A stretch of 57,772 nucleotides of DNA from Eubacteriales bacterium (GTDB lineage Bacteria > Bacillota > Clostridia > Oscillospirales > CAG-272). The position numbers and the translations under genes were made by a program. The stretch covers positions 1 to 57,772 of the forward strand of contig JAZQXE010000086.1 of the NCBI GenBank assembly GCA_045632705.1. The letters are read 5' to 3'. The notes under the pieces are model-generated. The model did no database searches. It was not told the origin of the DNA and saw nothing but the letters and a program-made list of their open reading frames with translations. Of this stretch, positions 5,051 to 55,503 are shown one piece after another (position 1 is the stretch's first letter; the number at the start of each line of letters is the position of its first letter).

Positions 5051-8000
5051 ATGAAAAACAAAGCCATTTCACTTATCGTGTCTCTTTCCTTTTTGCTCTC
5101 GTCAGCGCCCCTTTACACGTCAGCTGACGCTGTCAATGCGAAAAGCACAACGGATACGCTCCACTCAATATCCGAGCTGAATCTCGAAGCGGACGCGCTC
5201 GACTCGCATAGCGGCGTCACCTCGCTCAGTACGCTTGAAAGCGACTACCGACGCTCGTACAGAATAGACAACGAGGAGTTTATAGACGAGGGATACATCT
5301 GGTATCCGAGAACAAAAAAACTCTCGAGCGGCAAATACATAATGTTTTTCCAGGATGGAAGATGGGGTCCTAATATATACTATACCCTCTCCGACGACGG
5401 ACTCAATTGGGAAAAGCCGACGTATCTGTTCAAGGCTCATATAACCGAGGACGGTAAATTCTTGAGAAATTACGCGACCGCAGACGCTATTGAGCTTGAA
5501 AACGGAGACATACTCGTTTCGGCTATCTTCCAGCCCTCGAGAATAAGCTCCGACACCCCTGCCGTCAGCCGTTGGGATATGCTCAATCGCGGAATCATCA
5601 CCAAGATATCGCACGACGGCGGTCAGAGCTTTGAGGACGAGCAGATAATCTACCACGGCAGATGCTGGGAGCCGAGCTTTTTGCAGCTTCCCGACGGCTC
5701 GGTGCAAATGTACTTTACTCAGTCAGGTCCCAAGGACGCCGTCTACGGCTCTGCTCTCGGCTCGCACGTTTCAAGCGGCGTTGGTATGTTCACGTCCTGC
5801 GACAACGGTGCAAGCTGGACGCCGACCACCCTCACCTATCCTTACGTTACGAAAAGAATAGTGCAAAATCCGATATACGAGTATAACGGCATCACGATAC
5901 TGACAGACCAGATGCCGGTTTCCGTTCTCTTGCACGACAACGAAACGATCGTAATGGTCGTTGAAAGTATGCGCCCCGATCAAAGCGGACACAGTACGAG
6001 TATCATCCGCTCTCACGATTTCTTTGAAACGACGCTGGAGGAAGACGAATACGGTCCCTCCGACAGAGACGACTTCATAGTATCGGGAGCCGCCCCTTAC
6101 ATAGCGCAGTTCCCCTCGGGTGAGATCGCGATATCAAACTTCCACTCACACAAGCACAAGGTATATCTCGGAAACGAGCTCGGCACGGAATTTGATTTTA
6201 CGCGCGCCTATATTCCCTTAAAAAATCAGACGGTAGCTATGTGGGGAGACCTGTTTGTAGCAGACAGCCACACCCTCATTGCAAGCGCAGGTGATACGAT
6301 AGTTGAAGCCGGCGTAGAGCTGAATCTCACATCAAGCGGAATGGGCTTTGGTACTATGGTATTAAATCATAGGATCGACGCAAAGAAGCTCACGGCAACC
6401 ATCGACGCGTCAAGTACAGAATGGGCAAACAACACCGACGCTCTGTTCGTCGGAAGCGAGTCTCAGGCACAAGTTTCCGTCCGCTACGCTCACGACGAAA
6501 ACTACGTATACGCTCTGGCAGAGGTACTCGACGACGACGTCTGCTCCTCTGACGCTATCACGTTATACCTCAAAGGCGAAAGCTCGGACGAGGTTATAGT
6601 CGCTATGGTAAACTCAAAAGGCGAGTACACCGTAAAGAAAAACACCTCCTCCGCTCAGCAGAGCGTCAGCGGTGTCGCATGCAGCGTAAAAAAATACACC
6701 TCGCAACTCAAGGGATACGCCGTTGAGCTGGCGCTCCCCATCTCGCTTTTCTCGGGTGAGGGGACGCTCAGAACCTTCGTCAAGCTGACGAACAAGGACG
6801 GGGGTAAAACCTACGTCGATACCTTTGACGGCGTGAGTGAATCTGACGATAGCACATGGCACATGATAGTACTTTCAAGTACTCTTGCTCTCCCCAACGT
6901 CTACTCAAGCGAAAGCGTTAGCGTATGGGACGGAGTAAGTGCCAACGTCGGCTGGTATGCAAAAAACACGGAGGCTGATGAATTTTTCATAAATTCAGCC
7001 GAAGAGCTCTACGGCTTGTCACTTCTCTGCTCTTACTTTGACAGCGGAGCAAGCCTGCTCAGAAATTCAAGACTCTACTACGACTCGGAGTATAACGTAA
7101 TACTCGACAAAGAAAAAATAACCGACGCTACCCCCTACGTCAAGGGAACGAAGCTCGTCGGAGAAACGATCCGACTGACCTGCGACGTTGACCTTGACTC
7201 ACACCGGTTCTTGCCTATCGGAAGCACGGGCTCGTTCCAAGGACTTATCTTTGATGGAGGCGGCCACACGATAAAGAATCTCTACGTAAACGCCGAGACG
7301 GCAATGCACAAAACGCTCACCACACAGTACTTCTTCGGTCTTTTTGCGGCAACCGCTTCAAACTGTACAGTACAAAATCTGCGCATTGAAGATCCCGTAT
7401 ACGACGTAAACGTACCGAGCAGCGCAAAGAGCATCTACCTCGGAGGCATATCCGCTTATTCAACGGGCAATACGGCATTTTACGACTGTATAGTCGATCA
7501 TCCGAAGATAATTTACCGTCCGGCAGACGGGATCCAACCCACCGCGTGCCTTTTCGGAGGTCTCATCGGTAAATACGAGACGCCCCAAAGACACGAAAAC
7601 GTAACGGTTTACGACTACGAGATAGTAGACGAGAAAGATCTCGGAAACTGGACGAGCGACTCGTCACTTCTCTTTGGAAGAATAACGAAAACGGGGGTAA
7701 GCGCAAGCTTTTACAAGTGTAAGGTCTACGAAAAAGAAGAAATACTCATAAGAAAAGAAACTCCCGTCTGGGACGGAGTGAGCGCCAACGTCGGATGGTA
7801 CGCAAAAAACACGGAGGCCCCGGCCTTCTACGTTTCAAACGGCGAGGAGCTGTACGCACTCTCTCTGCTTTGCTCATCCTTTGATCCGAAGGGCAGTTTG
7901 TTTGGCGATGCGAAGCTCTATTACGACGAAAACTACGACGTTATCTTTGACAGATCAAAGATAAACGAAAATACCGCCTACGTTACAGGAACGAAACTCG

Positions 8001-25404: not shown

Positions 25405-25590
25405 TTTATCTGCCTGACTGCGTAGCAGAAAGATCATCCTTTGTATTTTTTCCATCGGTCAGCTTTGTTTTGAGCTTACGCTCATATTTGGACTCACCGT
25501 ACGGCAAGGCTGTGCCGCGGAGGTATCCGCCGAAATTTCGATAAACCTCCGACCTCGTCAACCGCATACGCGGCCTGGCGCTATCCAACG
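25405..25590 (-). ncRNA. glmS ribozyme: glmS ribozyme (GlcN6P-dependent self-cleaving riboswitch)
   Basis: The minus strand reads A|GCGCCAGGCCGCGUAUGCGGUUGACGAGGUCGGAGGUUUAUCGAAAUUUCGGCGGAUACCUCC.... This matches the conserved AGCGCC cleavage site, the GACGAGG core and the GGAGG-UUAUCGAA-UUUCGGCGGAU-CCUCC core. The predicted cleavage is between 25582 and 25581. It lies directly 5' of glmS. Confidence 0.92.
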
Positions 25591-25603
25591 TGGGATTTAG
25601 CAG

Positions 25604-30032: not shown

Positions 30033-30114
30033 TTGTAGGGGTCGACGTCCTCGGCGACCCGTTATTGTAGGGGTCGACGTCCTCGGCGACCCGTTATTGT
30101 AGGTGTCGACATCC
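30033..30114. repeat. 2.6 tandem copies of a 32-nt unit, each containing a GC hairpin
   Basis: TTGTAGGGGTCGACGTCCTCGGCGACCCGTTA at 30033-30064 and 30065-30096, plus a partial degenerate copy at 30097-30114. The internal stem is GGGTCG/CGACCC. Confidence 0.85.
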
Positions 30115-30147
30115 TTTTGAGAACCAGCCTAAGCGCACATTTTTTCT

Positions 30148-34140: not shown

Positions 34141-34162
34141 AATAGTTGCACGCGCAACTATT
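34141..34162. promoter_or_regulatory. Candidate MarR operator (9-bp inverted repeat)
   Basis: AATAGTTGC-ACGC-GCAACTATT, about 55 nt upstream of the marR start. Confidence 0.4.
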
Positions 34163-34248
34163 TTAACAAATTCCCCACGTCAAGTCAACCCCTCCTCCTG
34201 TAAAAATACGCTCCCCCCCTCACTTCACACTACGATACTATGTCTCCG

Positions 34249-34277
34249 TTGACAATAACACGTTTATCGTGTAAGAT
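34249..34277 (+). promoter_or_regulatory. Candidate promoter upstream of cas12a
   Basis: TTGACA (34249-34254), 17-nt spacer, TAAGAT (34272-34277). It lies at the G+C to A+T composition switch. Confidence 0.3.
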
Positions 34278-34376
34278 CGTATATGAAGAAGATTATTTTA
34301 AAAAAAATTTATATCTCACAAGCAGAAGTACTGTTTATCGTACTCTGCACATGGTAAAATAGTCATAGAAACAAAA

Positions 34377-34397
34377 AAGAGACTCAAAGAGTCTCTT
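34377..34397. other. Hairpin AAGAGACTC-AAA-GAGTCTCTT at the left edge of the CRISPR-Cas island
   Basis: Perfect 9-bp stem. It is preceded by an A-run, so it reads as an intrinsic terminator on the minus strand. It is related to the hairpins at 40346-40377 and 40415-40432. Confidence 0.6.
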
Positions 34398-34423
34398 GAA
34401 AATAATAAAACGGGAGTTTGATT

Positions 34424-37400
34424 ATGAAAAACATTTTTAGCAATTTCACTCACTGTTATCCATTGCAGAAAACTTTAAGATTTTCTTTGATCCCCCAAGG
34501 CAAAACAGAAGAAAACATTCAAAAATACGGACTTCTCGAAAACGACGAGTTAAAAGCTATGCTTTACCCCGAAGTAAAAAAAATATTTGACAAATATCAC
34601 AAAGCATATATAGATGAAACGTTATCAACTTTTGTTTGTGATTTTGAAGAATTGTTTGATACGTTTGATCTCTATGTTAATAACAAATCAAAATATCAAA
34701 AAGCATACAAAGAAACCTCGGACAAGTATCAAAAAATGATTTCAGAGCACCTTAAAGGCTCGAAGCTTGCAAAATCAGAAGACAAATTCAAGGAATTAAA
34801 CCCGAGTAATATAATCAAAAGTATCGTTTCTTCCACGAACAAAATTTCATTAACAGACGAAGAGATCTATGCTGTAAAGGCATTTGATAATTTCTCAACA
34901 TATTTTAGCGGATACAGCGAAGTTCGCGAAAACATATATTCTACGAACATTGCCGGATCTGTGGCATACAGAATAATCTGCGATAATTTTCCTAAATTTT
35001 ATTGGAACTGCAAAAAGTACAATTCAATACCCGATGACAAAAAATTAGAATTTAATAGTGAACTGAAGTCATTGACGTCTTTAGCGCTTGACGAAATATT
35101 CTCAAAAAATTATTTTATCAACACAATCACTCAGCAAGGATTGGAACTTTACAATACAATTATAGGCGGAAAAACCAATAATGAAACTAGTACAAAGGAA
35201 GTAGGTTTGAACGAACTGTGCAACCTATATCTAAAGGATCAAAAAATCAAATTTTCTCCTTTGTACAAACAAATTCTGTCAGATAGAGAAACCGCATCTT
35301 TTATTCCCACAGCTTACAAAAACGATATAGAGGTAAAAACGGATATCGTCACTTTGTGTGATTACATATCCGAATCCAACATTGACAGTTTGCGTTCCGC
35401 ATTTCTGTCCGATAGCCTATGCCTTGATAAAATATACATTGACAAAAAGCAGTTACCCTTCCTTTCGCAGTTGCTCTTCGGGGGAGATTGGGGACGGATC
35501 GGCAAAGCTCTTGAAACACACACAGTCAACAACTCCGAAACCAAATCATCAAAAAAAGCAGAAAGCATCACAAGCAAGGAGCTGTTTAACTTATCTGATA
35601 TAGTTTCATCGCTTGAGTCCGAAGATTATTCCGAAAACATTTTAGAAGATGCTTTCGCTGCATTTGAAGAAGCGTTCGCTTCGGTCGTTAAATATTACAA
35701 TAGCGAAAAAGCATTTCTATCAGACAATTCCCGCATTGAATCTTTTGACAATATCAAATCAATTTTAGACGAAATACAAAAAGCAGAAAAAATCCTAAAG
35801 ATATTCAATGCTCCCGATGATGTTGAAAAAGACGATTTGTTTTACTCTGTATTTGATGAGGAATATTCAAGATTTAGGAGCAACATCACAGTATATAACA
35901 AAGTAAGAAACTACGCTACCAAAAAGCCATACTCCCAAGAAAAATTCAAACTCAATTTTAACAATTATCAGCTTGCCACCGGATGGGATATCAACAAAGA
36001 AAAAGAATGTTCAACGTTCTTGTTGACAAGAAACGGCAAGTATTATCTCGGCGTTTTGAAGAACAGAACTATATTTGAAGCAAAAGACGACGATGGTAAT
36101 ATCACAGACGATTGTTTCTCAAAAATAATATACAAACAGATTCCCAACGCAGCAAAATATCTGAGCATAAAGCAGATAAAGCCGCAAAACCCTCCAGCTT
36201 CTATACTCAAACTCTTTGAAAAGGGCTGCGAATTAACAAAAGAAGACCTGTGCGCAAAAATAAATTACATAGTAAATGATTTTCTTCCCAATTATGCTCC
36301 AATTCACGACACCGACGGAAACCCCTATTTTAATTTTGAATTCAAAGCTACCGAGAACTATTCATCTTGGAAAGAATTTTGTGATTCCGTCGATAAACAA
36401 GCGTACAGTCTTTCCTTCAAACCGGTATCGGAAAAATCGATATTTTCTGCTATAGACGAAGGAAAACTGTTTTTATTTGAAATATACAGCAAGGATTTTT
36501 CCGAAAAATCCTTCGGAAAGCCTAACCTGCATACATTATATTTCCGAGAGCTTTTCTCAGAAGAAAACATCAAAGACCCCGTATTCAAACTAAACGGCGG
36601 CGCAGAATTGTTCTATAGACCTGCAAGCATCCGCAATCCTTTTGTGCATAAAAAGGGCTCTGTCCTGATAAACAAAAAAGATAAAAAAGGCAACGTCGTG
36701 GACGAAGCGTCGTATATGGCAGCTACGGAAGATGCAAATACCGATATGACAATAGAGGAACTAAAAAACAAGCATCCGTCCCTTCTGTTCAGATATGCTC
36801 CGCATGATATCACTAAAGACAAAAGATTCTCAACCCCCTCGTACAAATTTCATGTGCCGATAACTCTGAACAACGCAACAGATGTTAAGTATCCAAAATT
36901 CAACTCTGCGGTGCTTGATGCAATTAGCGAAAATACCGATGTTAATATAATCGGCATTGATCGAGGCGAACGCAATCTGCTGTATATCAGTGTCATTGAT
37001 CAAAACGGAAACATTCTTGAGCAAAGATCCCTCAATAGCCTCAACGGTATCAACTACCACCAAAAACTCGCTATTATTGAAAAAAATCGTGACAACGAGA
37101 GGAAAAACTGGCACACCATAGAAAATATAAAAGAAACAAAAGAGGGGTATCTTTCTTTAGCCGTACACGAAATTTCAAGTCTTATGCTCAAGCACAATGC
37201 AATCATCGCTCTTGAAGATTTGAATTTCTCTTTCAAACACGGCAGGTTCCATATTGAAAAACAAGTATATCAAAAATTCGAAAAAATGCTGATAGACAAG
37301 CTCAACTATCTCGCAGACAAAAGCAAAACAAGAGAGGAAGGAGGCATAGCAAACGCTTATCAGCTTACAAATCAGTTTGAGAGCTTCCAAAAATTAGGCA

Positions 37401-38104
37401 AGCAAAGCGGATTTTTATTCTACGTCCCAGCGCGCTATACATCAAAAATTGACCCCGCAAGCGGTTTTGTAAATTTGTTTACCAACGACCATTTGAAGTA
37501 TTCAAGCTGTGCCACTGCTGCCGATTTCATAAGCAAATTTGATTCTGTACGATACGTATCTGAATACGATTGCTTTGCATTCGATTTTGATTACTCGAAA
37601 TTCAATTTGAAGAGTACCGACTACACTAACAAATGGACAGCTTACACCGTTGGAGATGATAGAGTAAACACCAAAATAGAAAACGGACATTATAAGCACG
37701 AACGGACCAACGTTACAAAGGAAATGGTCGACTTGTTCAACACCTACAACGTTGACATCAACCAAACAGATATGAAGCCGCAAATTCTTAAAATCGATCA
37801 AAAAGAATTTTGGAAAAAGCTCCTGTGGTTATTACGTTTGACTTTGTCTTTGCGCCATGAGGATGACAAGGACGATTTTATCCTCTCTCCAATTTGTGTT
37901 AATGGCAAATTCTACGATAGCAGAAATTTCGCAAATACTCCGGATGCAAAAATGCCAATTGACGCAGACGCTAACGGCGCATATCACATTGCACTCCAAG
38001 GTCTGAGATTGTTGGGACGAATATCAGATGGCAAAATAACAGCCGACGAATCAGGAAAGCAAAACTACAATTGGCTGAAATTTGCACAAACAAGAAACAG
38101 TTAA
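34424..38104 (+). CDS. cas12a: Type V-A CRISPR effector nuclease Cas12a (Cpf1)
   Basis: 1226 aa from ATG 34424 (GGGAG 7 nt upstream; the ORF track begins at TTG 34418). N-terminal YPLQKTLRFSLIPQGKT. WED/RNase His in YKFHVPITLN. RuvC-I IGIDRGERNLLY (Asp codon 36959-36961). RuvC-II AIIALEDLN (Glu codon 37214-37216). RuvC-III DADANGAYHIALQG. Nuc-lobe LSLRHED..DFILSPI. No HNH insert. Confidence 0.95.
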   Translation: MKNIFSNFTHCYPLQKTLRFSLIPQGKTEENIQKYGLLENDELKAMLYPEVKKIFDKYHKAYIDETLSTFVCDFEELFDTFDLYVNNKSKYQKAYKETSDKYQKMISEHLKGSKLAKSEDKFKELNPSNIIKSIVSSTNKISLTDEEIYAVKAFDNFSTYFSGYSEVRENIYSTNIAGSVAYRIICDNFPKFYWNCKKYNSIPDDKKLEFNSELKSLTSLALDEIFSKNYFINTITQQGLELYNTIIGGKTNNETSTKEVGLNELCNLYLKDQKIKFSPLYKQILSDRETASFIPTAYKNDIEVKTDIVTLCDYISESNIDSLRSAFLSDSLCLDKIYIDKKQLPFLSQLLFGGDWGRIGKALETHTVNNSETKSSKKAESITSKELFNLSDIVSSLESEDYSENILEDAFAAFEEAFASVVKYYNSEKAFLSDNSRIESFDNIKSILDEIQKAEKILKIFNAPDDVEKDDLFYSVFDEEYSRFRSNITVYNKVRNYATKKPYSQEKFKLNFNNYQLATGWDINKEKECSTFLLTRNGKYYLGVLKNRTIFEAKDDDGNITDDCFSKIIYKQIPNAAKYLSIKQIKPQNPPASILKLFEKGCELTKEDLCAKINYIVNDFLPNYAPIHDTDGNPYFNFEFKATENYSSWKEFCDSVDKQAYSLSFKPVSEKSIFSAIDEGKLFLFEIYSKDFSEKSFGKPNLHTLYFRELFSEENIKDPVFKLNGGAELFYRPASIRNPFVHKKGSVLINKKDKKGNVVDEASYMAATEDANTDMTIEELKNKHPSLLFRYAPHDITKDKRFSTPSYKFHVPITLNNATDVKYPKFNSAVLDAISENTDVNIIGIDRGERNLLYISVIDQNGNILEQRSLNSLNGINYHQKLAIIEKNRDNERKNWHTIENIKETKEGYLSLAVHEISSLMLKHNAIIALEDLNFSFKHGRFHIEKQVYQKFEKMLIDKLNYLADKSKTREEGGIANAYQLTNQFESFQKLGKQSGFLFYVPARYTSKIDPASGFVNLFTNDHLKYSSCATAADFISKFDSVRYVSEYDCFAFDFDYSKFNLKSTDYTNKWTAYTVGDDRVNTKIENGHYKHERTNVTKEMVDLFNTYNVDINQTDMKPQILKIDQKEFWKKLLWLLRLTLSLRHEDDKDDFILSPICVNGKFYDSRNFANTPDAKMPIDADANGAYHIALQGLRLLGRISDGKITADESGKQNYNWLKFAQTRNS

Positions 38105-38106
38105 AT

Positions 38107-38670
38107 ATGGAAAATCCATTATATATTACCTCACTCAACGATTTTATTTTTTGTCCTGTCTCAATTTATTTTCATAACATAGACGGCGCTGCCGATATAC
38201 TGACATTCCAAGATGAATATCAGTTAAACGGCAGTGCCGCCCATGAAAAAACTGACAACGGTGATTACTCTGATAAAAAAAGCGTGTTGCAAGCAATACC
38301 AATATATTGTCAAAAGTATGATTTGCTTGGAAAAATAGACGTTTTTGATACAGAAACTGGCATTTTAACAGAACGAAAAAAGAAAATTGACTTCATATAT
38401 GACGGATATGTGTTTCAACTTTATGCGCAATATTTTTCTCTGAGTGAAATGGGATACAAGGTCAACGAAATCCGTCTATACAGTTATGACGACAACAAAA
38501 CCTATAAAATACCTTTACCAAGTCAAAATGAAGAAATGTTTTTTAAATTTGAAAAAGTAATAAATGATATCAAAACTTTTTCGTTTGAAGAGTTTGTACA
38601 ATCAAACATTCTTAAATGCAAAAAATGCATATACGAGCCTCTTTGTTCATTTTCAAAAAAGGAGGATTAA
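38107..38670 (+). CDS. cas4: CRISPR-associated exonuclease Cas4
   Basis: Start at ATG 38107, 2 nt after the cas12a stop. N-terminal Cys in FIFCPVSIYF, a C-terminal CKKCIYEPLC cluster and a RecB-like core DVFD...ERKKK. Confidence 0.9.
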   Translation: MENPLYITSLNDFIFCPVSIYFHNIDGAADILTFQDEYQLNGSAAHEKTDNGDYSDKKSVLQAIPIYCQKYDLLGKIDVFDTETGILTERKKKIDFIYDGYVFQLYAQYFSLSEMGYKVNEIRLYSYDDNKTYKIPLPSQNEEMFFKFEKVINDIKTFSFEEFVQSNILKCKKCIYEPLCSFSKKED

Positions 38671-38673
38671 CCT

Positions 38674-39639
38674 ATGATCTCTGCTCCTGAATTTGACAAA
38701 AAACAAATTTTGTTTGTATTCTTTAAGGAAGGAGAAAAAATATCTTTTTCAAACGACAATCTCATCGTAAAAGACTGCGAAGGAAAAACGAAACTTCAGA
38801 TAACATGCTATAGACTCTTTATTGTTTATGCAATAGGTCACTTTAGCGTCACCTCTGCCTTGATTCAAAATGCACAAAAATTCGGTTTTTTCATTGTGTT
38901 TATGACAAGCAATTTTCGTATTTATGATGTTATAGGTGCAAATAAAGACGGAAATACTCTCCTAAAGAAAAAACAATACACATATAATAGTTTAGACATA
39001 GCAAAGCATATTACAAAAAACAAAATATCCAATCAAGTTGTTTTGCTACAGTCCATTCGCAACAAAAGCGATGCTCAAAAAGAAGCTATAATAAAACTGA
39101 AGGAGTATTACTCGCAAATTGACAATACCACAGCACTCAATGAAATAATGGGGTACGAAGGTCTTGCCTCCAAAATTTATTTCAAAAATTATTTTAACAA
39201 TATCGAATGGAAAGGACGCGAACCGAGGATAAAAAGAGACTACATAAACAGCACACTCGATACCGGTTATACACTATTGTTCTCTTTCGTAGATTCTTTA
39301 CTTTTGATATTCGGTTTTGATACATACTGCGGGGTAATGCACAGGCAGTTTTATATGAGAAAATCTCTTGTGTGTGATATTGTAGAACCGTTTAGGTGTA
39401 TAATAGACAAACAAACAAAAAAGAGTATCAATCTAAAGCAAATAAAAGATGCCGATTTTGTAGTGATAAATGGTCAGTATAAAATAAGCTATCAAAAATC
39501 TGCCGAGTATGCAAAAATACTTTTTTATCCTTTGATTGAACATAAAAACGATATATTCTTGTTCGTTAGAGACTATTATCGGTCTTTCATGAAGGATTCT
39601 GAGATATCAAAATATCCTATATTTGATATCTCAGATTAA
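38674..39639 (+). CDS. cas1: CRISPR-associated integrase Cas1
   Basis: 321 aa. Conserved MGYEG, GVMHRQ and DIVEPFR catalytic-region motifs. Confidence 0.92.
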   Translation: MISAPEFDKKQILFVFFKEGEKISFSNDNLIVKDCEGKTKLQITCYRLFIVYAIGHFSVTSALIQNAQKFGFFIVFMTSNFRIYDVIGANKDGNTLLKKKQYTYNSLDIAKHITKNKISNQVVLLQSIRNKSDAQKEAIIKLKEYYSQIDNTTALNEIMGYEGLASKIYFKNYFNNIEWKGREPRIKRDYINSTLDTGYTLLFSFVDSLLLIFGFDTYCGVMHRQFYMRKSLVCDIVEPFRCIIDKQTKKSINLKQIKDADFVVINGQYKISYQKSAEYAKILFYPLIEHKNDIFLFVRDYYRSFMKDSEISKYPIFDISD

Positions 39640-39654
39640 ATATATGGGTGTGGT

Positions 39655-39930
39655 ATGATAATAATAAGTTATGACATTTCAGACGACAAAAAAAGAAATA
39701 AATTCTCAAAATACATAAAAAGATTTGGTCACAGACTACAATACTCCGTATACGAAATAGACAATAGTGATAAAATACTAAACAACATTATGACAGATAT
39801 AAAAAACAAATTTGAAAAAACATTTGACCAATATGATAGTATTTATGTGTTCAAAATGAGTGAAACTTGCCGAATAGAGAAATTCGGGTATGCAAGAAAC
39901 GAAAACGATGAGTTGATTATTATAAAATAA
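39655..39930 (+). CDS. cas2: CRISPR-associated protein Cas2
   Basis: 91 aa. MIIISYDISDDKKRNKFSKYIKRFGHRLQYSVYE, a ferredoxin-like Cas2 signature. Confidence 0.9.
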   Translation: MIIISYDISDDKKRNKFSKYIKRFGHRLQYSVYEIDNSDKILNNIMTDIKNKFEKTFDQYDSIYVFKMSETCRIEKFGYARNENDELIIIK

Positions 39931-40058
39931 CTTGCAAACATAAGTCTTAATATGTTATATTGTTCTTGTATAGGGGATTGTTATTCACTAAAACTCACTT
40001 TTTTGTTTATTATTCACTAATATACAAATTATTTATTGTGTATAAACACAACGCAAGG
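39931..40058 (+). promoter_or_regulatory. AT-rich CRISPR leader
   Basis: 128-nt A/T-rich spacer between cas2 and the first repeat. The degenerate repeat is at the far end of the array, which places the leader here. Confidence 0.65.
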
Positions 40059-40344
40059 GATTAATAATCCCTTATAATTTCTACTATTGTAGATTGCGCC
40101 GTCGAGGAATACTATCTTTTTAGATTAATAATCCCTTATAATTTCTACTATTGTAGATACAGTCCTGACTTGTATCACTCGTATGATTAATAATCCCTTA
40201 TAATTTCTACTATTGTAGATAAGAGAACAAGGACAAGAAAAGGAATATGATTAATAATCCCTTATAATTTCTACTATTGTAGATGAGTCAGTTAATCTCC
40301 CTGCGCTTGAAGATTAATAATCCCTTATAATTTCTATTGTAGAT
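40059..40344 (+). CRISPR. Type V-A CRISPR array, 5 repeats and 4 spacers
   Basis: 36-nt repeat GATTAATAATCCCTTATAATTTCTACTATTGTAGAT at 40059, 40123, 40185 and 40249. The terminal copy at 40312-40344 lacks ACT (33 nt). Spacers are 28, 26, 28 and 27 nt. The repeat 3' end forms the Cas12a handle UCUAC-UAUU-GUAGA. Confidence 0.97.
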
Positions 40345-40345
40345 T

Positions 40346-40377
40346 CAAGAGTCTCTACATAGAGACTCTTTTGTTTG
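40346..40377 (+). terminator. Hairpin and T-tract immediately after the array
   Basis: Arms AGAGTCTC and GAGACTCT with loop TACATA, followed by TTTTGTTTG. Confidence 0.6.
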
Positions 40378-40414
40378 AGAGTAGTGTAGTTCTATATGTG
40401 ACTAAAACAAAAAA

Positions 40415-40432
40415 AGTCTCTATATAGAGACT
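40415..40432. other. Perfect 18-nt palindrome of the same family
   Basis: AGTCTCTATATAGAGACT, flanked by a duplicated GACTAAAAC. Confidence 0.6.
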
Positions 40433-40438
40433 AAAACG

Positions 40439-40476
40439 GAAAGACGAGAAGTTTAGAGAACTCCTCGTCTTTTTTA
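40439..40476. terminator. Hairpin and T-run between the CRISPR island and rsmG
   Basis: Arms GAAAGACGAG and CTCGTCTTT followed by TTTTT. Confidence 0.6.
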
Positions 40477-40499
40477 GTATTACGTTTTAACCGACCGCG

Positions 40500-42828: not shown

Positions 42829-43923
42829 ATGAAAAAGAAAACTCTCGTAGCGCTCTTACTTGCAGCGCTCATGATAATACCCTTTGGTATAATGGCAAGT
42901 ATAGGAGCAAGCGCCGACACGGCTGCTTCCCTGCTCCCCACAGAGCCCAAGCTCACAAGCGACAAGGTCGTCTACTATTCCTACAACGGCTCTAACCCCT
43001 ACGGTGCTACCAGCGACACAAACGACGGTCTCTCCCCCTCTACCGCAAAGTCGTCCTACGGTACTCTTACCGGTAACGGTGCGATCAAGCTCCTTGAAGA
43101 GATGGGCGGTACTATCGCCATCCCCGGAAAAGCCTACGGCGGTGTTGACGGATTCACCTTTGAAAAGCTCGGCGGTGCTGTCAGATTCACCGCTATCGAC
43201 CCGACAACTAAGGTCGACTACACGGGCGTAGCTGAAACCGAAGACGGTAAAAACGGAAACCAGACGGGTATGTGGCTCTGGAAGGACCACTGCTCCGTTA
43301 ACTTTGCAGGCGACTACATATTTGAGGATATAACCATTCTCCACCGTACCGCGAGCACAAAGATGGAGCTCGTAGTTTTGACGGGTGCTAACCTCGTTAT
43401 CGGAAATAACGTTACCATAACCAAGATGAATATAGGCAGCTCGTTCGGCTCTGCTCCTTACGCGACCGCTACCGTAGTGGTTGAGGCAGGCGCTAATCTC
43501 TTCCTCCATTCCGTAGGCTTCTCCGATTACAAGGGCTCGGGAACTATCGTTCTTGACAAGGCTCTGCTCGACGACGGCAAGATAGAGCTGACCGCATTTG
43601 AGAATTTTGACGGAATCGTCCTCGACGAAAAGGGCAATCTCCTGCTCAACAACACCGTAAAGGAAGACGATACCACCGCCGCTGACGACACTACTGCGTC
43701 TGACGACACAACGAAGGGTGACGATACCACAAAGGCACCCACAACGACCAAGGCGCCTACGACGACCAAGGCTCCCACCACAACGAAAGCTCCTACGACG
43801 ACACAGGCTAACGACACCGCCGAGGCTGCTTCATTCCCGATATGGCTCATCGCAGTAATAGCGGGTGCCGTTATCGTAGCGGTAGTCGTAATAATCGTGG
43901 TTGCAAAGAAGAAAAAACAGTAA
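42829..43923 (+). CDS. Secreted, C-terminally membrane-anchored protein with a TTKAPT-repeat stalk
   Basis: Start at ATG 42829 (GGAGG at 42816-42820). Signal peptide MKKKTLVALLLAALMIIPFGIMASIGASA. C-terminal TM IWLIAVIAGAVIVAVVVIIVVAKKKKQ. Confidence 0.75.
   Translation: MKKKTLVALLLAALMIIPFGIMASIGASADTAASLLPTEPKLTSDKVVYYSYNGSNPYGATSDTNDGLSPSTAKSSYGTLTGNGAIKLLEEMGGTIAIPGKAYGGVDGFTFEKLGGAVRFTAIDPTTKVDYTGVAETEDGKNGNQTGMWLWKDHCSVNFAGDYIFEDITILHRTASTKMELVVLTGANLVIGNNVTITKMNIGSSFGSAPYATATVVVEAGANLFLHSVGFSDYKGSGTIVLDKALLDDGKIELTAFENFDGIVLDEKGNLLLNNTVKEDDTTAADDTTASDDTTKGDDTTKAPTTTKAPTTTKAPTTTKAPTTTQANDTAEAASFPIWLIAVIAGAVIVAVVVIIVVAKKKKQ
43726..43803 (+). repeat. 18-nt in-frame tandem repeat (about 4.3 copies) encoding TTKAPT
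   Basis: ACCACAAAGGCACCCACA, ACGACCAAGGCGCCTACG, ACGACCAAGGCTCCCACC and so on. Confidence 0.8.
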
Positions 43924-52907: not shown

Positions 52908-52936
52908 TTGACATTTTGGCAAGTGCGCGATATAAT
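52908..52936 (+). promoter_or_regulatory. Consensus sigma-A promoter of the XRE-ImmA operon
   Basis: TTGACA (52908-52913), exactly 17 nt, then TATAAT (52931-52936). It lies 40 nt upstream of the ATG at 52976. Confidence 0.7.
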
Positions 52937-52975
52937 ATAATTGCTATTTATGATGACAGAGAAAGGAAAAAGACC

Positions 52976-53287
52976 ATGGGAAAGGATTTAGGTTTGCGAA
53001 TAACGGAAACGTTGCAAAAAAGAGGAATGACTCAAAAGGAGTTGGCATTGCGTATTGGAGTAACCGAAGCTGTTATCTCGAGATATATATCCGGAGACAG
53101 AGACCCTAAACCTGACGCTTTGGCAAATATCGCAACCGCACTCAATACCACGTCGGATTATTTGCTCGGCATTGAAAATGAAGAGTTTGATCACCCAAGA
53201 ATTCGCCGTATGATTGCAAGAAATGCTTCAAAAATGACGGAAAAAGAAAGAAAAGAACTGATTGACGCATTATTTGGGGAGGAGTAA
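52976..53287 (+). CDS. XRE-family helix-turn-helix transcriptional regulator
   Basis: Start at ATG 52976 (SD AAAGGA). MTQKELALRIGVTEAVISRYISGDRDPKPDALANIATALNTTSDYLLG is a canonical HTH_3 domain. Confidence 0.88.
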   Translation: MGKDLGLRITETLQKRGMTQKELALRIGVTEAVISRYISGDRDPKPDALANIATALNTTSDYLLGIENEEFDHPRIRRMIARNASKMTEKERKELIDALFGEE

Positions 53288-53289
53288 TA

Positions 53290-53841
53290 TTGGGAATTTC
53301 TTTATCACACGCACGATACGAAAAAATCAAACAGATAATCGTTGATCTCTTTGTTCAGTATAATATTCATTGTATTCCTGTCAGTGCATTTGAGGTAGCG
53401 TTGAAAATGGGTATTCCTGTCGTCCCCTACTCAGCAATCCCGGAAAGCAAACGCCATCTTCTTTTCAAGGAAAGCGAAGATGGCTTTGTGATAGAAAAGT
53501 ACGAGGGAGAATGGTATATTTATTATAACGATCAAAAAGAATACGGAAGAATCAACAATACCATTATGCACGAAATCGGACATATTGTTTTAAACCACAG
53601 TGAAGATAGTGAGCTTGCCGAAAAAGAAGTAAAATTCTTCGCCAAGTACGCGCTTGCACCTCCGGTCCTTATCCACAAGCTTGGTCTCAAAAACGCATTT
53701 GAGGTTTACGCGAATTTTGATGTCAGCATTGAAGCGGCAGTCTATGCTTACGACTACTATCAAAAATGGCTGACTTTGGGTAGGAATGAGTATACCGATT
53801 ATGAATTACGATTGCTTCGACTTTTTGACGAGGCAGTATAA
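53290..53841 (+). CDS. ImmA/IrrE-family zinc metallopeptidase (COG2856)
   Basis: TTG start 3 nt after the XRE stop (SD GGGGAGGAG). HExxH motif in IMHEIGHIVLNH. Confidence 0.85.
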   Translation: MGISLSHARYEKIKQIIVDLFVQYNIHCIPVSAFEVALKMGIPVVPYSAIPESKRHLLFKESEDGFVIEKYEGEWYIYYNDQKEYGRINNTIMHEIGHIVLNHSEDSELAEKEVKFFAKYALAPPVLIHKLGLKNAFEVYANFDVSIEAAVYAYDYYQKWLTLGRNEYTDYELRLLRLFDEAV

Positions 53842-53934
53842 TAAATACCGAAAAAGGAGTGATGCCTCATGATCTACCGTAACATCAAGGGTTGCGCCAA
53901 CAACGCTTGATGACTTCAAACAAATACACAGAAG

Positions 53935-53968
53935 GATATGCTAAAGCACGCCACTTAGATGCAAATAT
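53935..53968 (+). repeat. Inner 34-nt direct repeat, copy A
   Basis: GATATGCTAAAGCACGCCACTTAGATGCAAATAT, 32/34 identical to 55746-55779. Confidence 0.8.
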
Positions 53969-54052
53969 GAGTGTTTTAGCCTACCCTTACTTAACTATTG
54001 CCAAAAGGCAAAATCACATTACCTCGTTAAGAGGAGAAAGGTTAAAATACTT

Positions 54053-54724
54053 ATGTCAAAAACAATAATTGACGACGGCTTTAACGCCGAACTCGTTTCA
54101 AATGCGTTCTTTGATGGCATTATGGAGATCCCAATTCTCGAAAAGCCCAAAGAAATCATTATTCCATCCGCACTCATTCCCTTCACGCAAATGAAGCGAA
54201 GTGCAACCAAAACAGAAGCTGTTCATTTTTACGAACACGATAAAAGGTTTTCCGACGTGCTTACTTGCACCAAGGAATTGCTCCCCGAACTCTCAAAGTT
54301 TTCCGCTGTCATATCTCCCGATTGCTCTCTATACCGAGATATGCCGTTGTGCTTGCAAATTGCAAACACGTATATGAACCGAGCAGTAGGACATTATCTG
54401 CAATCCAATGGATTATACGTCATTCCTAACGTTCGCTGGGGAGACGAACGCAGTTTTACGACTACGGAACTTCCGGAAAAATTCGCATTTCTCGGTGTGC
54501 CAAAAAACAGTATTGTTTCCATCGGCACATACGGTTGTATTCAAAGCCGAGAAAACAAGGAGTATTTCCGCAAAGGATTGTCGGCAATGCTTGACGAGCT
54601 TACACCGAAAGTTGTTCTTGTATACGGCGGTATGCCCGAGAGTATTTTCGGAGAATTCAAGAGTAGAACTGAATTTGTCAATTATCCCGACTGGACTTCT
54701 ACGAAAAGAAGGAGGGCGGTATAA
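54053..54724 (+). CDS. DUF4417-like protein (function unknown)
   Basis: 223 aa. SD GAGGAGAAAGG upstream. The family assignment is by recollection of DUF4417-type sequences (FYEHDKRF...ISPDCSLYRDMP...IPNVRWGD) and needs an HMM check. Confidence 0.6.
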   Translation: MSKTIIDDGFNAELVSNAFFDGIMEIPILEKPKEIIIPSALIPFTQMKRSATKTEAVHFYEHDKRFSDVLTCTKELLPELSKFSAVISPDCSLYRDMPLCLQIANTYMNRAVGHYLQSNGLYVIPNVRWGDERSFTTTELPEKFAFLGVPKNSIVSIGTYGCIQSRENKEYFRKGLSAMLDELTPKVVLVYGGMPESIFGEFKSRTEFVNYPDWTSTKRRRAV

Positions 54725-55170
54725 TGGGCTCTGGTATTTCTGGTGGATATTCCAATACAAAAGGAGCATCTTCATCAAGCGAAGCTCTTGTAAAGCAGTT
54801 AGAGCAAAGCGGTGTGAAATTCTCAAAAACGGATATGGTGTTTGTCACCAAGGATAAAACGGGACAAGTTGTATGGCTTGAAAAAGGAAGTTCAAGTGCA
54901 GGACTAAAGCATATTCTTGATGGTGATGGAAAGACGCCGGGACACGCTGAGGATTTCCAACGTGCTTTTGGGATTTCTCGATCAGAAATTCCTGCACATA
55001 TCGAAAAAGTTATCACAAACGGTACGGTGGTTAATAACCAACTAAAGCCGGTAAGAAACCGAATGGGGTATGAAAGAACATATTATTATAACGGAGAGTA
55101 TTATGTCGTTACCGGAATAGGTTCCAACGGATACATCGTTTCTGCTTACCCTAAGCGTATGCGCAAATAA
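54724..55170 (+). CDS. Small toxin-like protein with a Gly/Ser-rich N-terminus (family unassigned)
   Basis: 148 aa. The ATG overlaps the DUF4417 stop (TAATG). N-terminal MGSGISGGYSNTKGASSSS linker-like segment, then GLKHILDGDGKTPGHAEDF...YYVVTGIGSNGYIVSAYP, which is reminiscent of polymorphic-toxin C-terminal domains. Confidence 0.5.
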   Translation: MGSGISGGYSNTKGASSSSEALVKQLEQSGVKFSKTDMVFVTKDKTGQVVWLEKGSSSAGLKHILDGDGKTPGHAEDFQRAFGISRSEIPAHIEKVITNGTVVNNQLKPVRNRMGYERTYYYNGEYYVVTGIGSNGYIVSAYPKRMRK

Positions 55171-55182
55171 GGAGGATTTAAA

Positions 55183-55503
55183 ATGATTAAAATAAAAATT
55201 ATGACCGAATTTCTTCACAGCCCGATTTGGACTTACGAGGATGGCATTGTTACAGATGACCTTACATTAGTATCAGAAGACAAAGAATTGCAAGCGTTAA
55301 GTGAAAAAATCGAAGCTATGTTTTCGAGTTATTATGAATTTGACTCGCATGACCAAGCGTGCTGGTTTAATTCCGAACAAGAAAAAGCAGACAAAGAGAT
55401 TATGCTTGATTTAATCACTCAGCTTATCTCTCGCCTGAACGAGATCAACGATGGCTCATTTGTAATTGAGGATTTAGAAACAGAACGATTAAAGCAATTA
55501 TAA
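55183..55503 (+). CDS. Small acidic protein, immunity/antitoxin-like
   Basis: 106 aa. SD AAGGAGGA. It begins 12 nt after the toxin-like ORF and is visibly rich in Asp and Glu. Confidence 0.5.
   Translation: MIKIKIMTEFLHSPIWTYEDGIVTDDLTLVSEDKELQALSEKIEAMFSSYYEFDSHDQACWFNSEQEKADKEIMLDLITQLISRLNEINDGSFVIEDLETERLKQL

Follow-up and report, generated by a model that had tools for sequence, protein, structure and literature searches.

A distant type V-A (Cas12a) CRISPR-Cas locus, apparently intact, in an uncultured Eubacteriales bacterium, with a shortened lysine helix and a predicted leader-repeat pairing

The chromosome of an uncultured Eubacteriales (Clostridia) bacterium carries, on contig JAZQXE010000086.1, a set of cas12a, cas4, cas1 and cas2 genes followed by a leader and a CRISPR array. 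The question that this locus raises is whether it is a genuine and intact type V-A adaptive immune system, and what sets it apart from the Cas12a systems already described. The window analysed here is that contig as a whole (57,772 bp), and all coordinates are positions in it. As judged from its sequence, we consider with a probability of about nine in ten that this is a genuine type V-A (Cas12a) CRISPR-Cas system of adaptive immunity, complete and apparently intact. Within a very well-known family it is ordinary, if distant, and, taken alone, holds no surprise for specialists. The genes, leader and array follow one another on the + strand between 34424 and 40344:

34424-38104, + strand: cas12a, 1226 amino acids (aa) from the ATG at 34424, in a frame open from 34418
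38107-38670, + strand: cas4, 187 aa from the ATG at 38107, in a frame open from 38071 that overlaps the end of cas12a
38674-39639, + strand: cas1, 321 aa, of the type V (PREFRAN) kind
39655-39930, + strand: cas2, 91 aa
39931-40058, + strand: leader, 128 nt, AT-rich, 22-27% GC
40059-40344, + strand: CRISPR array, four exact repeats and one degenerate terminal repeat

First, we looked at the identity of the effector. In a profile hidden Markov model search, the check suggested together with the original prediction of this locus, the protein matches the Cas12a/Cpf1 equivalog model TIGR04330 end to end, with 1016 bits against a cut-off of 300 (residues 5-1224 on model positions 1-1287 of 1288), and the next-best type V model, that of Cas12e, reaches only 79 bits against a cut-off of 200. 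Each of the 26 PDB Cas12a sequences is matched at E<=1e-183. Pfam recognises the REC1, REC2, RuvC_1 and NUC domains and finds no HNH domain in the protein, in agreement with the earlier claim that an HNH insert is absent. The open reading frame (ORF) of about 1226 aa that had been proposed is found at its place with its ATG at 34424, as are all the motifs quoted for it, and the codons assigned to the RuvC triad translate to D846, E931 and D1180-A-D1182. In the protein, the motifs lie as follows:

aa 808-816: KFHVPITLN
aa 843-851: IGIDRGERN
aa 929-934: ALEDLN
aa 1141-1147: LSLRHED
aa 1151-1157: DFILSPI
aa 1180-1190: DADANGAYHIA

A HMMER alignment pairs the residues expected to be catalytic with those of the Francisella novicida enzyme (FnCas12a):

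D846, RuvC: FnCas12a D917
E931, RuvC: FnCas12a E1006
D1182, RuvC: FnCas12a D1255
R1144, Nuc: FnCas12a R1218
H742, pre-crRNA (precursor CRISPR RNA) RNase: FnCas12a H843
K751, pre-crRNA RNase: FnCas12a K852
K798, pre-crRNA RNase: FnCas12a K869

The Asp/Glu/Asp triad put forward earlier thus aligns as it should, the third catalytic Asp being the second D of DADANG. One assignment stood only in part: the His of KFHVPITLN (H810), taken at first as the WED-domain His, is present and invariant in the family, but it is not the RNase His, which is H742 in FVHKKGS. Among 44 homologues, the RuvC, Nuc and RNase residues are invariant or nearly so; H742 and K798 are invariant and K751 is kept in at least 90%. 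A self-processing RNase site (H742/K751/K798) is therefore predicted in the WED domain, where about 40 residues are inserted between K751 and K798 (WED-III). The predicted structure has the bilobed fold of Cas12a. Indeed, an AlphaFold2 model, built for residues 1-1200 from a 45-sequence alignment (mean predicted local distance difference test score, pLDDT, 83.2; predicted template-modelling score, pTM, 0.68), is aligned by Foldseek to FnCas12a-crRNA 5ng6, LbCas12a 5id6 and MbCas12a 6iv6 with template-modelling (TM) scores of 0.83, 0.82 and 0.83, the E-values for Cas12a structures being about 1e-66 to 1e-78.

The full adaptation module that had been claimed behind the effector is also there. 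Cas4 and Cas1 score above the cut-offs of subtype-specific type V models (TIGR04328, 209 bits; TIGR04329, 404 bits against a cut-off of 300, together with Pfam Cas_Cas1), and Cas2 scores above that of the general Cas2 model TIGR01573 (47.5 bits) and matches PF09827. The four Cys of Cas4 and its D..ExK and QxxxY motifs are preserved, as are the acidic and His residues of Cas1; we take these to be the Fe-S and nuclease sites. The ATG at 38107 is most likely the start of cas4.

In the array, the 36-nt repeat GATTAATAATCCCTTATAATTTCTACTATTGTAGAT occurs in four exact copies (40059-40094, 40123-40158, 40185-40220 and 40249-40284; expectation in shuffled sequence, 0), separated and followed by spacers of 28, 26, 28 and 27 nt (40095-40122, 40159-40184, 40221-40248 and 40285-40311). 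The 3' 19 nt of the repeat fold into a hairpin with a 5-bp stem and a 4-nt loop (-4.8 kcal/mol, z = -5.4), which conforms to the Cas12a pattern AAUUUCUAC-N4-GUAGAU in repeat-spacer orientation and confirms the 19-nt handle hairpin that had been described as typical of Cas12a. An identical handle is a direct-repeat variant in engineered Cas12a (AsCas12a) arrays (PMC11055879) and occurs in a natural Flavobacterium array (PMC5395568). A search of JGI metagenome contigs did not turn up the exact repeat of the window, but only a related ATTTAATAATCCTTATT-type repeat. Family models, catalytic residues, fold and handle all agree with the V-A interpretation of the original prediction.

The fifth repeat (40312-40344) is short by 3 nt of the stem (TCTACTATTG becomes TCTATTG) and no longer forms the handle hairpin. 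In V-A systems, an extraneous spacer-less crRNA would arise from the last repeat, and mutated terminal repeats are reported to avoid it (PMC13187072); the damaged fifth repeat fits this published avoidance. A further hairpin begins 2 nt past the terminal repeat:

40347-40378, + strand: intrinsic-terminator-like element from a terminator scan, hairpin AAGAGTCTCT-ACAT-AGAGACTCTT (40347-40370) followed by TTGTTTG

Altogether, these elements suggest how the system would work. The leader promoter would give a pre-crRNA, which Cas12a would cut 5' of each 19-nt handle (AAUUUCUACUAUUGUAGAU) by means of H742/K751/K798, with no need for a trans-activating CRISPR RNA (tracrRNA). The crRNA would direct Cas12a to DNA whose 5' protospacer adjacent motif (PAM) is T-rich, most likely (T/C)TTV, where both strands would be cut by the single RuvC site (D846/E931/D1182) with R1144. 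Cas4-Cas1-Cas2 would add new spacers at the leader-proximal repeat, and the terminal repeat, having lost its hairpin through the 3-nt deletion, would yield no spacer-less "extraneous" crRNA.

The leader holds two elements that bear on this scheme:

39932-39937, + strand: -35 box TTGCAA of the leader promoter (promoter scan)
39956-39961, + strand: TG-extended -10 box TATATT of the same promoter
39969-39986, + strand: anti-repeat TATAGGGGATTGTTATTC, matching the 5' half of the repeat in inverted orientation, about 7 nt after the -10 box

The layout of the leader promoter is repeated in six other V-A leaders. The anti-repeat can pair with 40059-40076 in the first repeat at 17 of 18 positions (15 Watson-Crick pairs and 2 G.U), and none of 2000 shuffles does as well (p<0.0005). 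The RNA spanning 39966-40094 has a minimum free energy of -32.4 kcal/mol, against -16.1 +/- 2.9 for shuffled sequences (z = -5.6). Both single-sequence and consensus folds predict a long-range leader-repeat helix that leaves the handle hairpin (40080-40093) free; the helix stops at the predicted Cas12a processing site, 5' of 40076.

An anti-repeat is also found 90-102 nt upstream of repeat 1 in six more lineages that have different repeats (L002-type, L014, L021/L022 from IMG/VR, L023, L025 and L026), each with a shuffle p<=0.009. Across the lineages, it begins 5-8 nt past the -10 box, that is at the predicted 5' end of the transcript. When the seven lineages are aligned, 90.5% of cells pair, against 35-48% if one arm is slid by 1-3 columns. 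Eight pairs are changed on both sides, a number reached by 2 of 500 shuffles, and the covariation score is 0.310 against 0.169 +/- 0.029, with 0 of 500 shuffles reaching it. RNAalifold independently predicts an identical 17-bp helix. Two more distant V-A loci were compared as well. The element is absent in one with a GC-rich repeat (L020, p = 0.94). In Butyrivibrio hungatei pNP144, an ungapped comparison pairs 12 of 17 positions (p = 0.43).

Is this pairing made in RNA or is it a symmetry of the DNA? The leader element and the first repeat could form a DNA inverted repeat, for instance a site at which Cas4-Cas1-Cas2, or an architectural protein of the host, docks or measures, so that the leader-proximal repeat is singled out for spacer insertion. 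The fixed distance of 90-102 bp from repeat 1 in seven lineages would suit such a site, as would covariation with the leader-proximal repeat end, where integration starts. Leader motifs do guide integration in other types, the IHF-folded leaders being an example (bioRxiv 10.1101/2023.05.26.542337), and Watson-Crick covariation cannot by itself separate DNA symmetry from RNA pairing. However, the cells of the 17-bp core comprise 103 Watson-Crick pairs, 9 G.U on the crRNA strand, 0 A.C and 7 A.A or U.U, and such an excess of G.U over A.C is expected for RNA pairing. The position of the element at the predicted transcript 5' end and the end of the helix at the Cas12a processing site also speak against a DNA site. 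Two equivalent DNA half-sites would not be expected to give this G.U/A.C asymmetry, which speaks for pairing in the transcript, in a small sample of seven lineages, some of them related. We therefore regard the DNA site as a serious alternative, if an unlikely one.

If the leader-repeat helix does form in the transcript, it may set the yield of the newest crRNA, shield the 5' end of the transcript, or act in trans on the 3' tails of other crRNAs. We found no description of a leader-repeat helix in V-A systems in the literature searched, which is not proof of novelty.

Two further observations concern V-A leaders elsewhere. In two contigs classed as viral (L021, IMGVR_UViG_3300039356_000253, and L022, IMGVR_UViG_3300045988_159908), whose Cas12a is 36-37% identical to the window protein and which have the same leader promoter and anti-repeat, the array lies about 325 nt after cas12a, so that there is no room for cas4-cas1-cas2 in between. 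In Synergistes jonesii (JMKI01000031.1, 9607-10614; L027), a transposase gene follows a V-A leader promoter in the place of the array, which seems to be interrupted or lost; the repeat is still present in a sibling contig (L028).

The second feature that sets the locus apart lies in the PAM-interacting (PI) domain of its effector. The window protein is a distant, uncharacterised orthologue, and look-ups of the exact sequences of window proteins gave no record in public assemblies. Its best matches among 5.8 billion clustered proteins are metagenomic and 47% identical, with no closer relative in that set, and the best solved structure is a synthetic ancestral reconstruction, ReChb (PDB 8qwd, 42% identity). 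The earlier suggestion that the ortholog is intact and may be uncharacterised is consistent with full-length cas genes and with this distance. Single-sequence and profile alignments to FnCas12a, LbCas12a and ReChb place a 5-residue gap where canonical Cas12a proteins have "MLPKV". The segment reads IPNAAK578-YL-SIK583-QIK586-PQNPP in the window (aa 578-586, at 36155-36181), and the shortened helix is found in none of the solved chains displayed through this segment (FnCas12a and ReChb).

In FnCas12a, this region is the loop-lysine helix-loop (LKL), in which K667, K671 and K677 form three "pins"; only K671 touches PAM bases, and the K671A variant loses most activity (Stella et al. 2017, bioRxiv 10.1101/122648). 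By alignment, the window protein keeps K525 (the WED K613), K578 (K667) and K583 (K677), and has no equivalents of M668, P670 and K671. The position of FnCas12a K671 presumably corresponds to K607 in AsCas12a and to K595 in LbCas12a. With another placement of the gap, K583 could lie one position from K671. The three-lysine LKL is a conserved structural detail of the characterised orthologues and not a defining feature of type V-A.

The shortened helix is not restricted to the window. With the PI fragment as query, phmmer was run exhaustively against 1.84 billion representatives and gave 33 proteins at E<=1e-3, 15 of them at E<=1e-10; the first 16 listed are of Cas12a length or are shorter fragments, and some of the weaker matches are unrelated longer proteins. 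Those of this type have in common the motif KQIP.A.KY[FL]S.KQI.PQNPP, in about 15 clusters at 50% identity. The proteins with this alternative, minority PI domain (P0002, P0047, P0053, P0069 and P0136-P0149) are overall only 37-47% identical to the window protein, and those nearest to it outside this domain (P0003-P0033) carry the canonical one; the PI type therefore appears to be distributed as a mosaic over Cas12a backbones that share no more than 37-47% identity among themselves.

Which PAM would such a protein read? In relatives that share the PI type (P0047/P0053/P0069 group; L002, L015 and L018), spacers match phage. Four different spacers from three strains with this PI type match one human-gut phage contig from faeces, MT836402.1 (L017), three perfectly and one with a single mismatch. 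The protospacers lie at 6729, 8316, 10448 and 10530, and their 5' flanks are TTTC, TTTC, TTTG and CTTC; the probability of meeting NTTV by chance at all four of the four sites is about 5e-6. A shortened helix and the usual T-rich PAM are therefore compatible, and by homology the PAM of the window Cas12a is most likely (T/C)TTV. A PI domain with no equivalent of K671 that nevertheless goes with (T/C)TTV would imply a different mode of PAM reading. The subfamily offers a ready-made test of how far PAM reading depends on K671, and a source of PI domains for chimeras. That a covarying leader-repeat helix and a PI domain without the base-reading lysine, yet with (T/C)TTV PAMs, are new features of a V-A lineage is a tentative proposal, in which we place somewhat less than even confidence.

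Several points weigh against the reading of the locus as a genuine, intact system. The match of the PI domain to PF22222 (25.4 bits) stays under the cut-off of 27, and in the profile alignment the lysine equivalent to K671 is absent. The relatives from which the PAM was deduced have the same motif in a PI domain that is only 36-44% identical to that of the window, the value varying with the part that is compared. For cas4, no ribosome-binding site is obvious and more than one start can be read. An empty insertion site could not be demonstrated, the nearest genomes being too distant. Finally, none of the four spacers of the window has a match in IMG/VR, among INPHARED phages, in PLSDB plasmids or in the window itself. 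One candidate, an IMG/VR match of spacer 3 from a 22-nt prefix search, covers 22 of 28 nt of purine-rich, low-complexity sequence with an AAGA flank and was taken as chance. With only four spacers and none of them matched, the array gives no proof of recent activity.

These points could mean that the locus is an inactive or decaying remnant, recently acquired and unused, in which the 5-residue deletion in the lysine helix has crippled PAM recognition by Cas12a. Besides the few spacers without protospacers and the weak Pfam match, the strong loss of activity in FnCas12a K671A would support this view, and the foreign GC content of the locus suggests a recent arrival. However, the four cas genes are full length with all catalytic residues intact, the four repeats are identical, and the shortened helix is a conserved motif in about 15 clusters and not a private lesion. 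Moreover, relatives with the same helix have long arrays, strain-specific spacers at the leader end, and perfect matches to gut phage with T-rich PAMs. A decaying remnant is thus improbable, and we keep to the reading of an intact type V-A system.

The presence of an anti-repeat also interrogates the type V subtype. The original prediction had found no anti-repeat in the flanking non-coding DNA; this holds for the 19-nt handle, to which no complement is found outside coding sequence, but not for the repeat as a whole, since the leader (39969-39986) complements its 5' half. It is very improbable that the locus belongs to a tracrRNA-dependent type V subtype with the leader anti-repeat as its tracrRNA: while an 18-nt complement of part of the repeat does lie in non-coding DNA beside the array, the effector is an equivalog-level Cas12a with a Cas12e score far under the cut-off, its self-processing RNase triad is intact, the complement spans only the excised 5' half of the repeat and not the 19-nt handle retained in the crRNA, and the element lies on the strand of the array and in its transcript. 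Since the leader anti-repeat pairs only with the half of the repeat that is cut away, it does not point to another type V subtype.

Standalone repeats were searched for as well. Shmakov et al. (2023) report repeat-like units of this kind for about one V-A locus in two, and those of Moraxella make up CreR, an autoregulator (Liu et al. 2023). A handle search of both strands with up to 3 mismatches returned only the array and one antisense site within cas12a (37910-37928, - strand), which is identical at 16 of 19 positions and folds alike. We rejected this site: it is complementary to the codons of the conserved FYDSRNF motif, relatives do not keep its nucleotide sequence, and it is probably due to chance. 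Upstream of cas12a, no handle-like sequence occurs at up to 5 mismatches, and local alignment of the repeat to 34141-34423 gives no repeat-like unit (best p = 0.86-0.92). A CreR or standalone repeat upstream of cas12a was therefore discarded on both searches.

The GC content of the window is 0.31-0.39 within about 34250-40480, against 0.48-0.50 outside: it falls at about 34250, the left edge of the island, and is back at host level at about 40480, its right edge. From this low GC relative to the flanks, the 6.2-kb module looks horizontally acquired, which is probably the case. A MarR/ABC-transporter operon borders the island on one side and rsmG on the other; neither an integrase nor a transposase gene adjoins the island. 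Among 185,579 species genomes, the closest RsmG proteins have identities of 68% and 63% and come from metagenome-assembled genomes labelled "Eubacteriales bacterium". The contig with the 68% match (L005) stops about 210 bp past rsmG, and in the sole relative contig that reaches further (L006) synteny beyond rsmG is not kept. At the ends of the island, we noted the following:

34249-34277, + strand: candidate promoter of cas12a, TTGACA, 17-nt spacer, TAAGAT (10/12 matches in a consensus scan)
34377-34397, - strand: hairpin AAGAGACTC-TTT-GAGTCTCTT followed by a minus-strand T-run (terminator scan, pattern searches and alignment)
40415-40432 and 40440-40472: two more hairpins, between the array and the convergent rsmG (scan)

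The candidate promoter coincides exactly with the left edge of the island, and the left hairpin sits in the 5' untranslated region of cas12a, 27 nt upstream of the start codon. Three of the hairpins (34378-34396, 40350-40367 and 40415-40432) are related palindromes with AGAGACT/AGTCTCT stems beside A- or T-runs, found at the two extremities of the island only; the left hairpin and the first on the right are inverted relative to each other and have the flanks AAACAAAA...CTCTTGAA in common. We considered them as ends of a mobile element and rejected this: the right-hand motif is unmatched in other loci and there is no integrase or transposase nearby. In IMG/VR, the left-hand hairpin with its flanks has no match. 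They are probably terminators, with a possible role at the island boundary.

The genes on either side have ordinary chromosomal functions of an anaerobic Firmicute:

flank: ABC transporters behind a MarR regulator
flank: RsmG gene, convergent to the array
flank: DHH phosphoesterase
flank: GlmM
flank: dockerin and BspA-repeat proteins
flank: SpoIID-like protein
25446-25593, - strand: glmS ribozyme (Rfam RF00234, 71 bits), upstream of a 612-aa ORF

The glmS ribozyme is the only hit of an Rfam scan of the window; it is consistent with a Firmicutes host, and the 612-aa ORF behind it is presumably glmS, by position only. Elsewhere in the window, a second region of lower GC (52916-55503; 0.40-0.43) holds genes for a helix-turn-helix protein resembling CapH/RmrA and for an M78 peptidase resembling CapP/ImmA; next come a DUF4417 protein and two small ORFs without a family match. 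The arrangement has the look of a regulatory pair from a mobile element or defence system. Between a gene of the metallo-beta-lactamase fold and an ABC-transporter gene, the intergenic DNA at 30033-30115 holds 2.6 tandem copies (96% match) of a 32-nt unit that is GC-rich and in part palindromic. Finally, in-frame tandem repeats with units of 33-36 nt (43127-43191 and 43729-43809) occur within a 378-aa ORF downstream of the DHH gene, for which neither Pfam nor PADLOC gives a match.

How does the locus compare with known systems? The Cas12a systems of Francisella novicida (FnCas12a), Lachnospiraceae ND2006 (LbCas12a), Acidaminococcus BV3L6 (AsCas12a) and Moraxella bovoculi (MbCas12a) have the same operon order, 36-nt repeats and the handle UCUAC-N4-GUAGAU, and are likewise without a tracrRNA. 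Their RuvC, Nuc and RNase residues match, with TM scores of 0.82-0.83. However, the characterised proteins are only 32-36% identical to that of the window, and FnCas12a and LbCas12a do not have its insertion of about 40 residues between K751 and K798. With at most 47% identity to anything public, the window thus adds one further intact Cas12a orthologue, a nuclease that can be screened, which is useful but unsurprising.

The best full-length matches, metagenomic P0002 and P0003-P0033 (43-47%) together with ReChb, do have the WED-III insertion, and over RuvC-I and the bridge helix their identity to the window protein amounts to 68-76%. In contrast, the PI domain of P0003-P0033 and ReChb is canonical and only 20-26% identical to that of the window, P0002 being the exception, so that the window protein is a mosaic relative to its nearest relatives. 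The group with the alternative PI domain (P0047/P0053/P0069, from common gut Clostridia, and P0136-P0149) shows the reverse: it has the PI type and motif of the window, a near-identical repeat (GATTTAATAATCCTTATTAATTTCTACTATTGTAGAT), the same operon order and the same leader promoter and anti-repeat, whereas the proteins are overall 37-40% identical and the arrays, unlike that of the window, are longer and have phage matches.

The leader element, for its part, has counterparts of two kinds. Like the standalone units and CreR, it is a repeat-derived element outside the array that is conserved in V-A loci. Those units lie mostly upstream of cas12a, and CreR combines an intact handle with a pseudo-spacer against the cas12a promoter, whereas the window element is inverted, lies in the leader and has no handle. 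Leader-repeat hairpins are known from II-A systems (Liao et al. 2022) and VI-B-like systems (EMBO J 2026; PMC13187072), where they disrupt the structure of the first repeat and so block the extraneous crRNA of guide-repeat systems; VI-A, the repeat-guide control subtype, has none (PMC13187072). As in the predicted V-A helix, leader RNA pairs there with the first repeat, and related systems keep this pairing. The V-A helix differs in that it would leave the handle hairpin intact and cover only the excised 5' half, in a subtype that is itself repeat-guide and for which such a structure would not be expected. Since V-A is repeat-guide and the handle is spared, the blocking of extraneous crRNA does not apply as an explanation, and a covarying helix in such a system suggests that leader RNA has some other part to play, either in the making of crRNA or in the integration of spacers.

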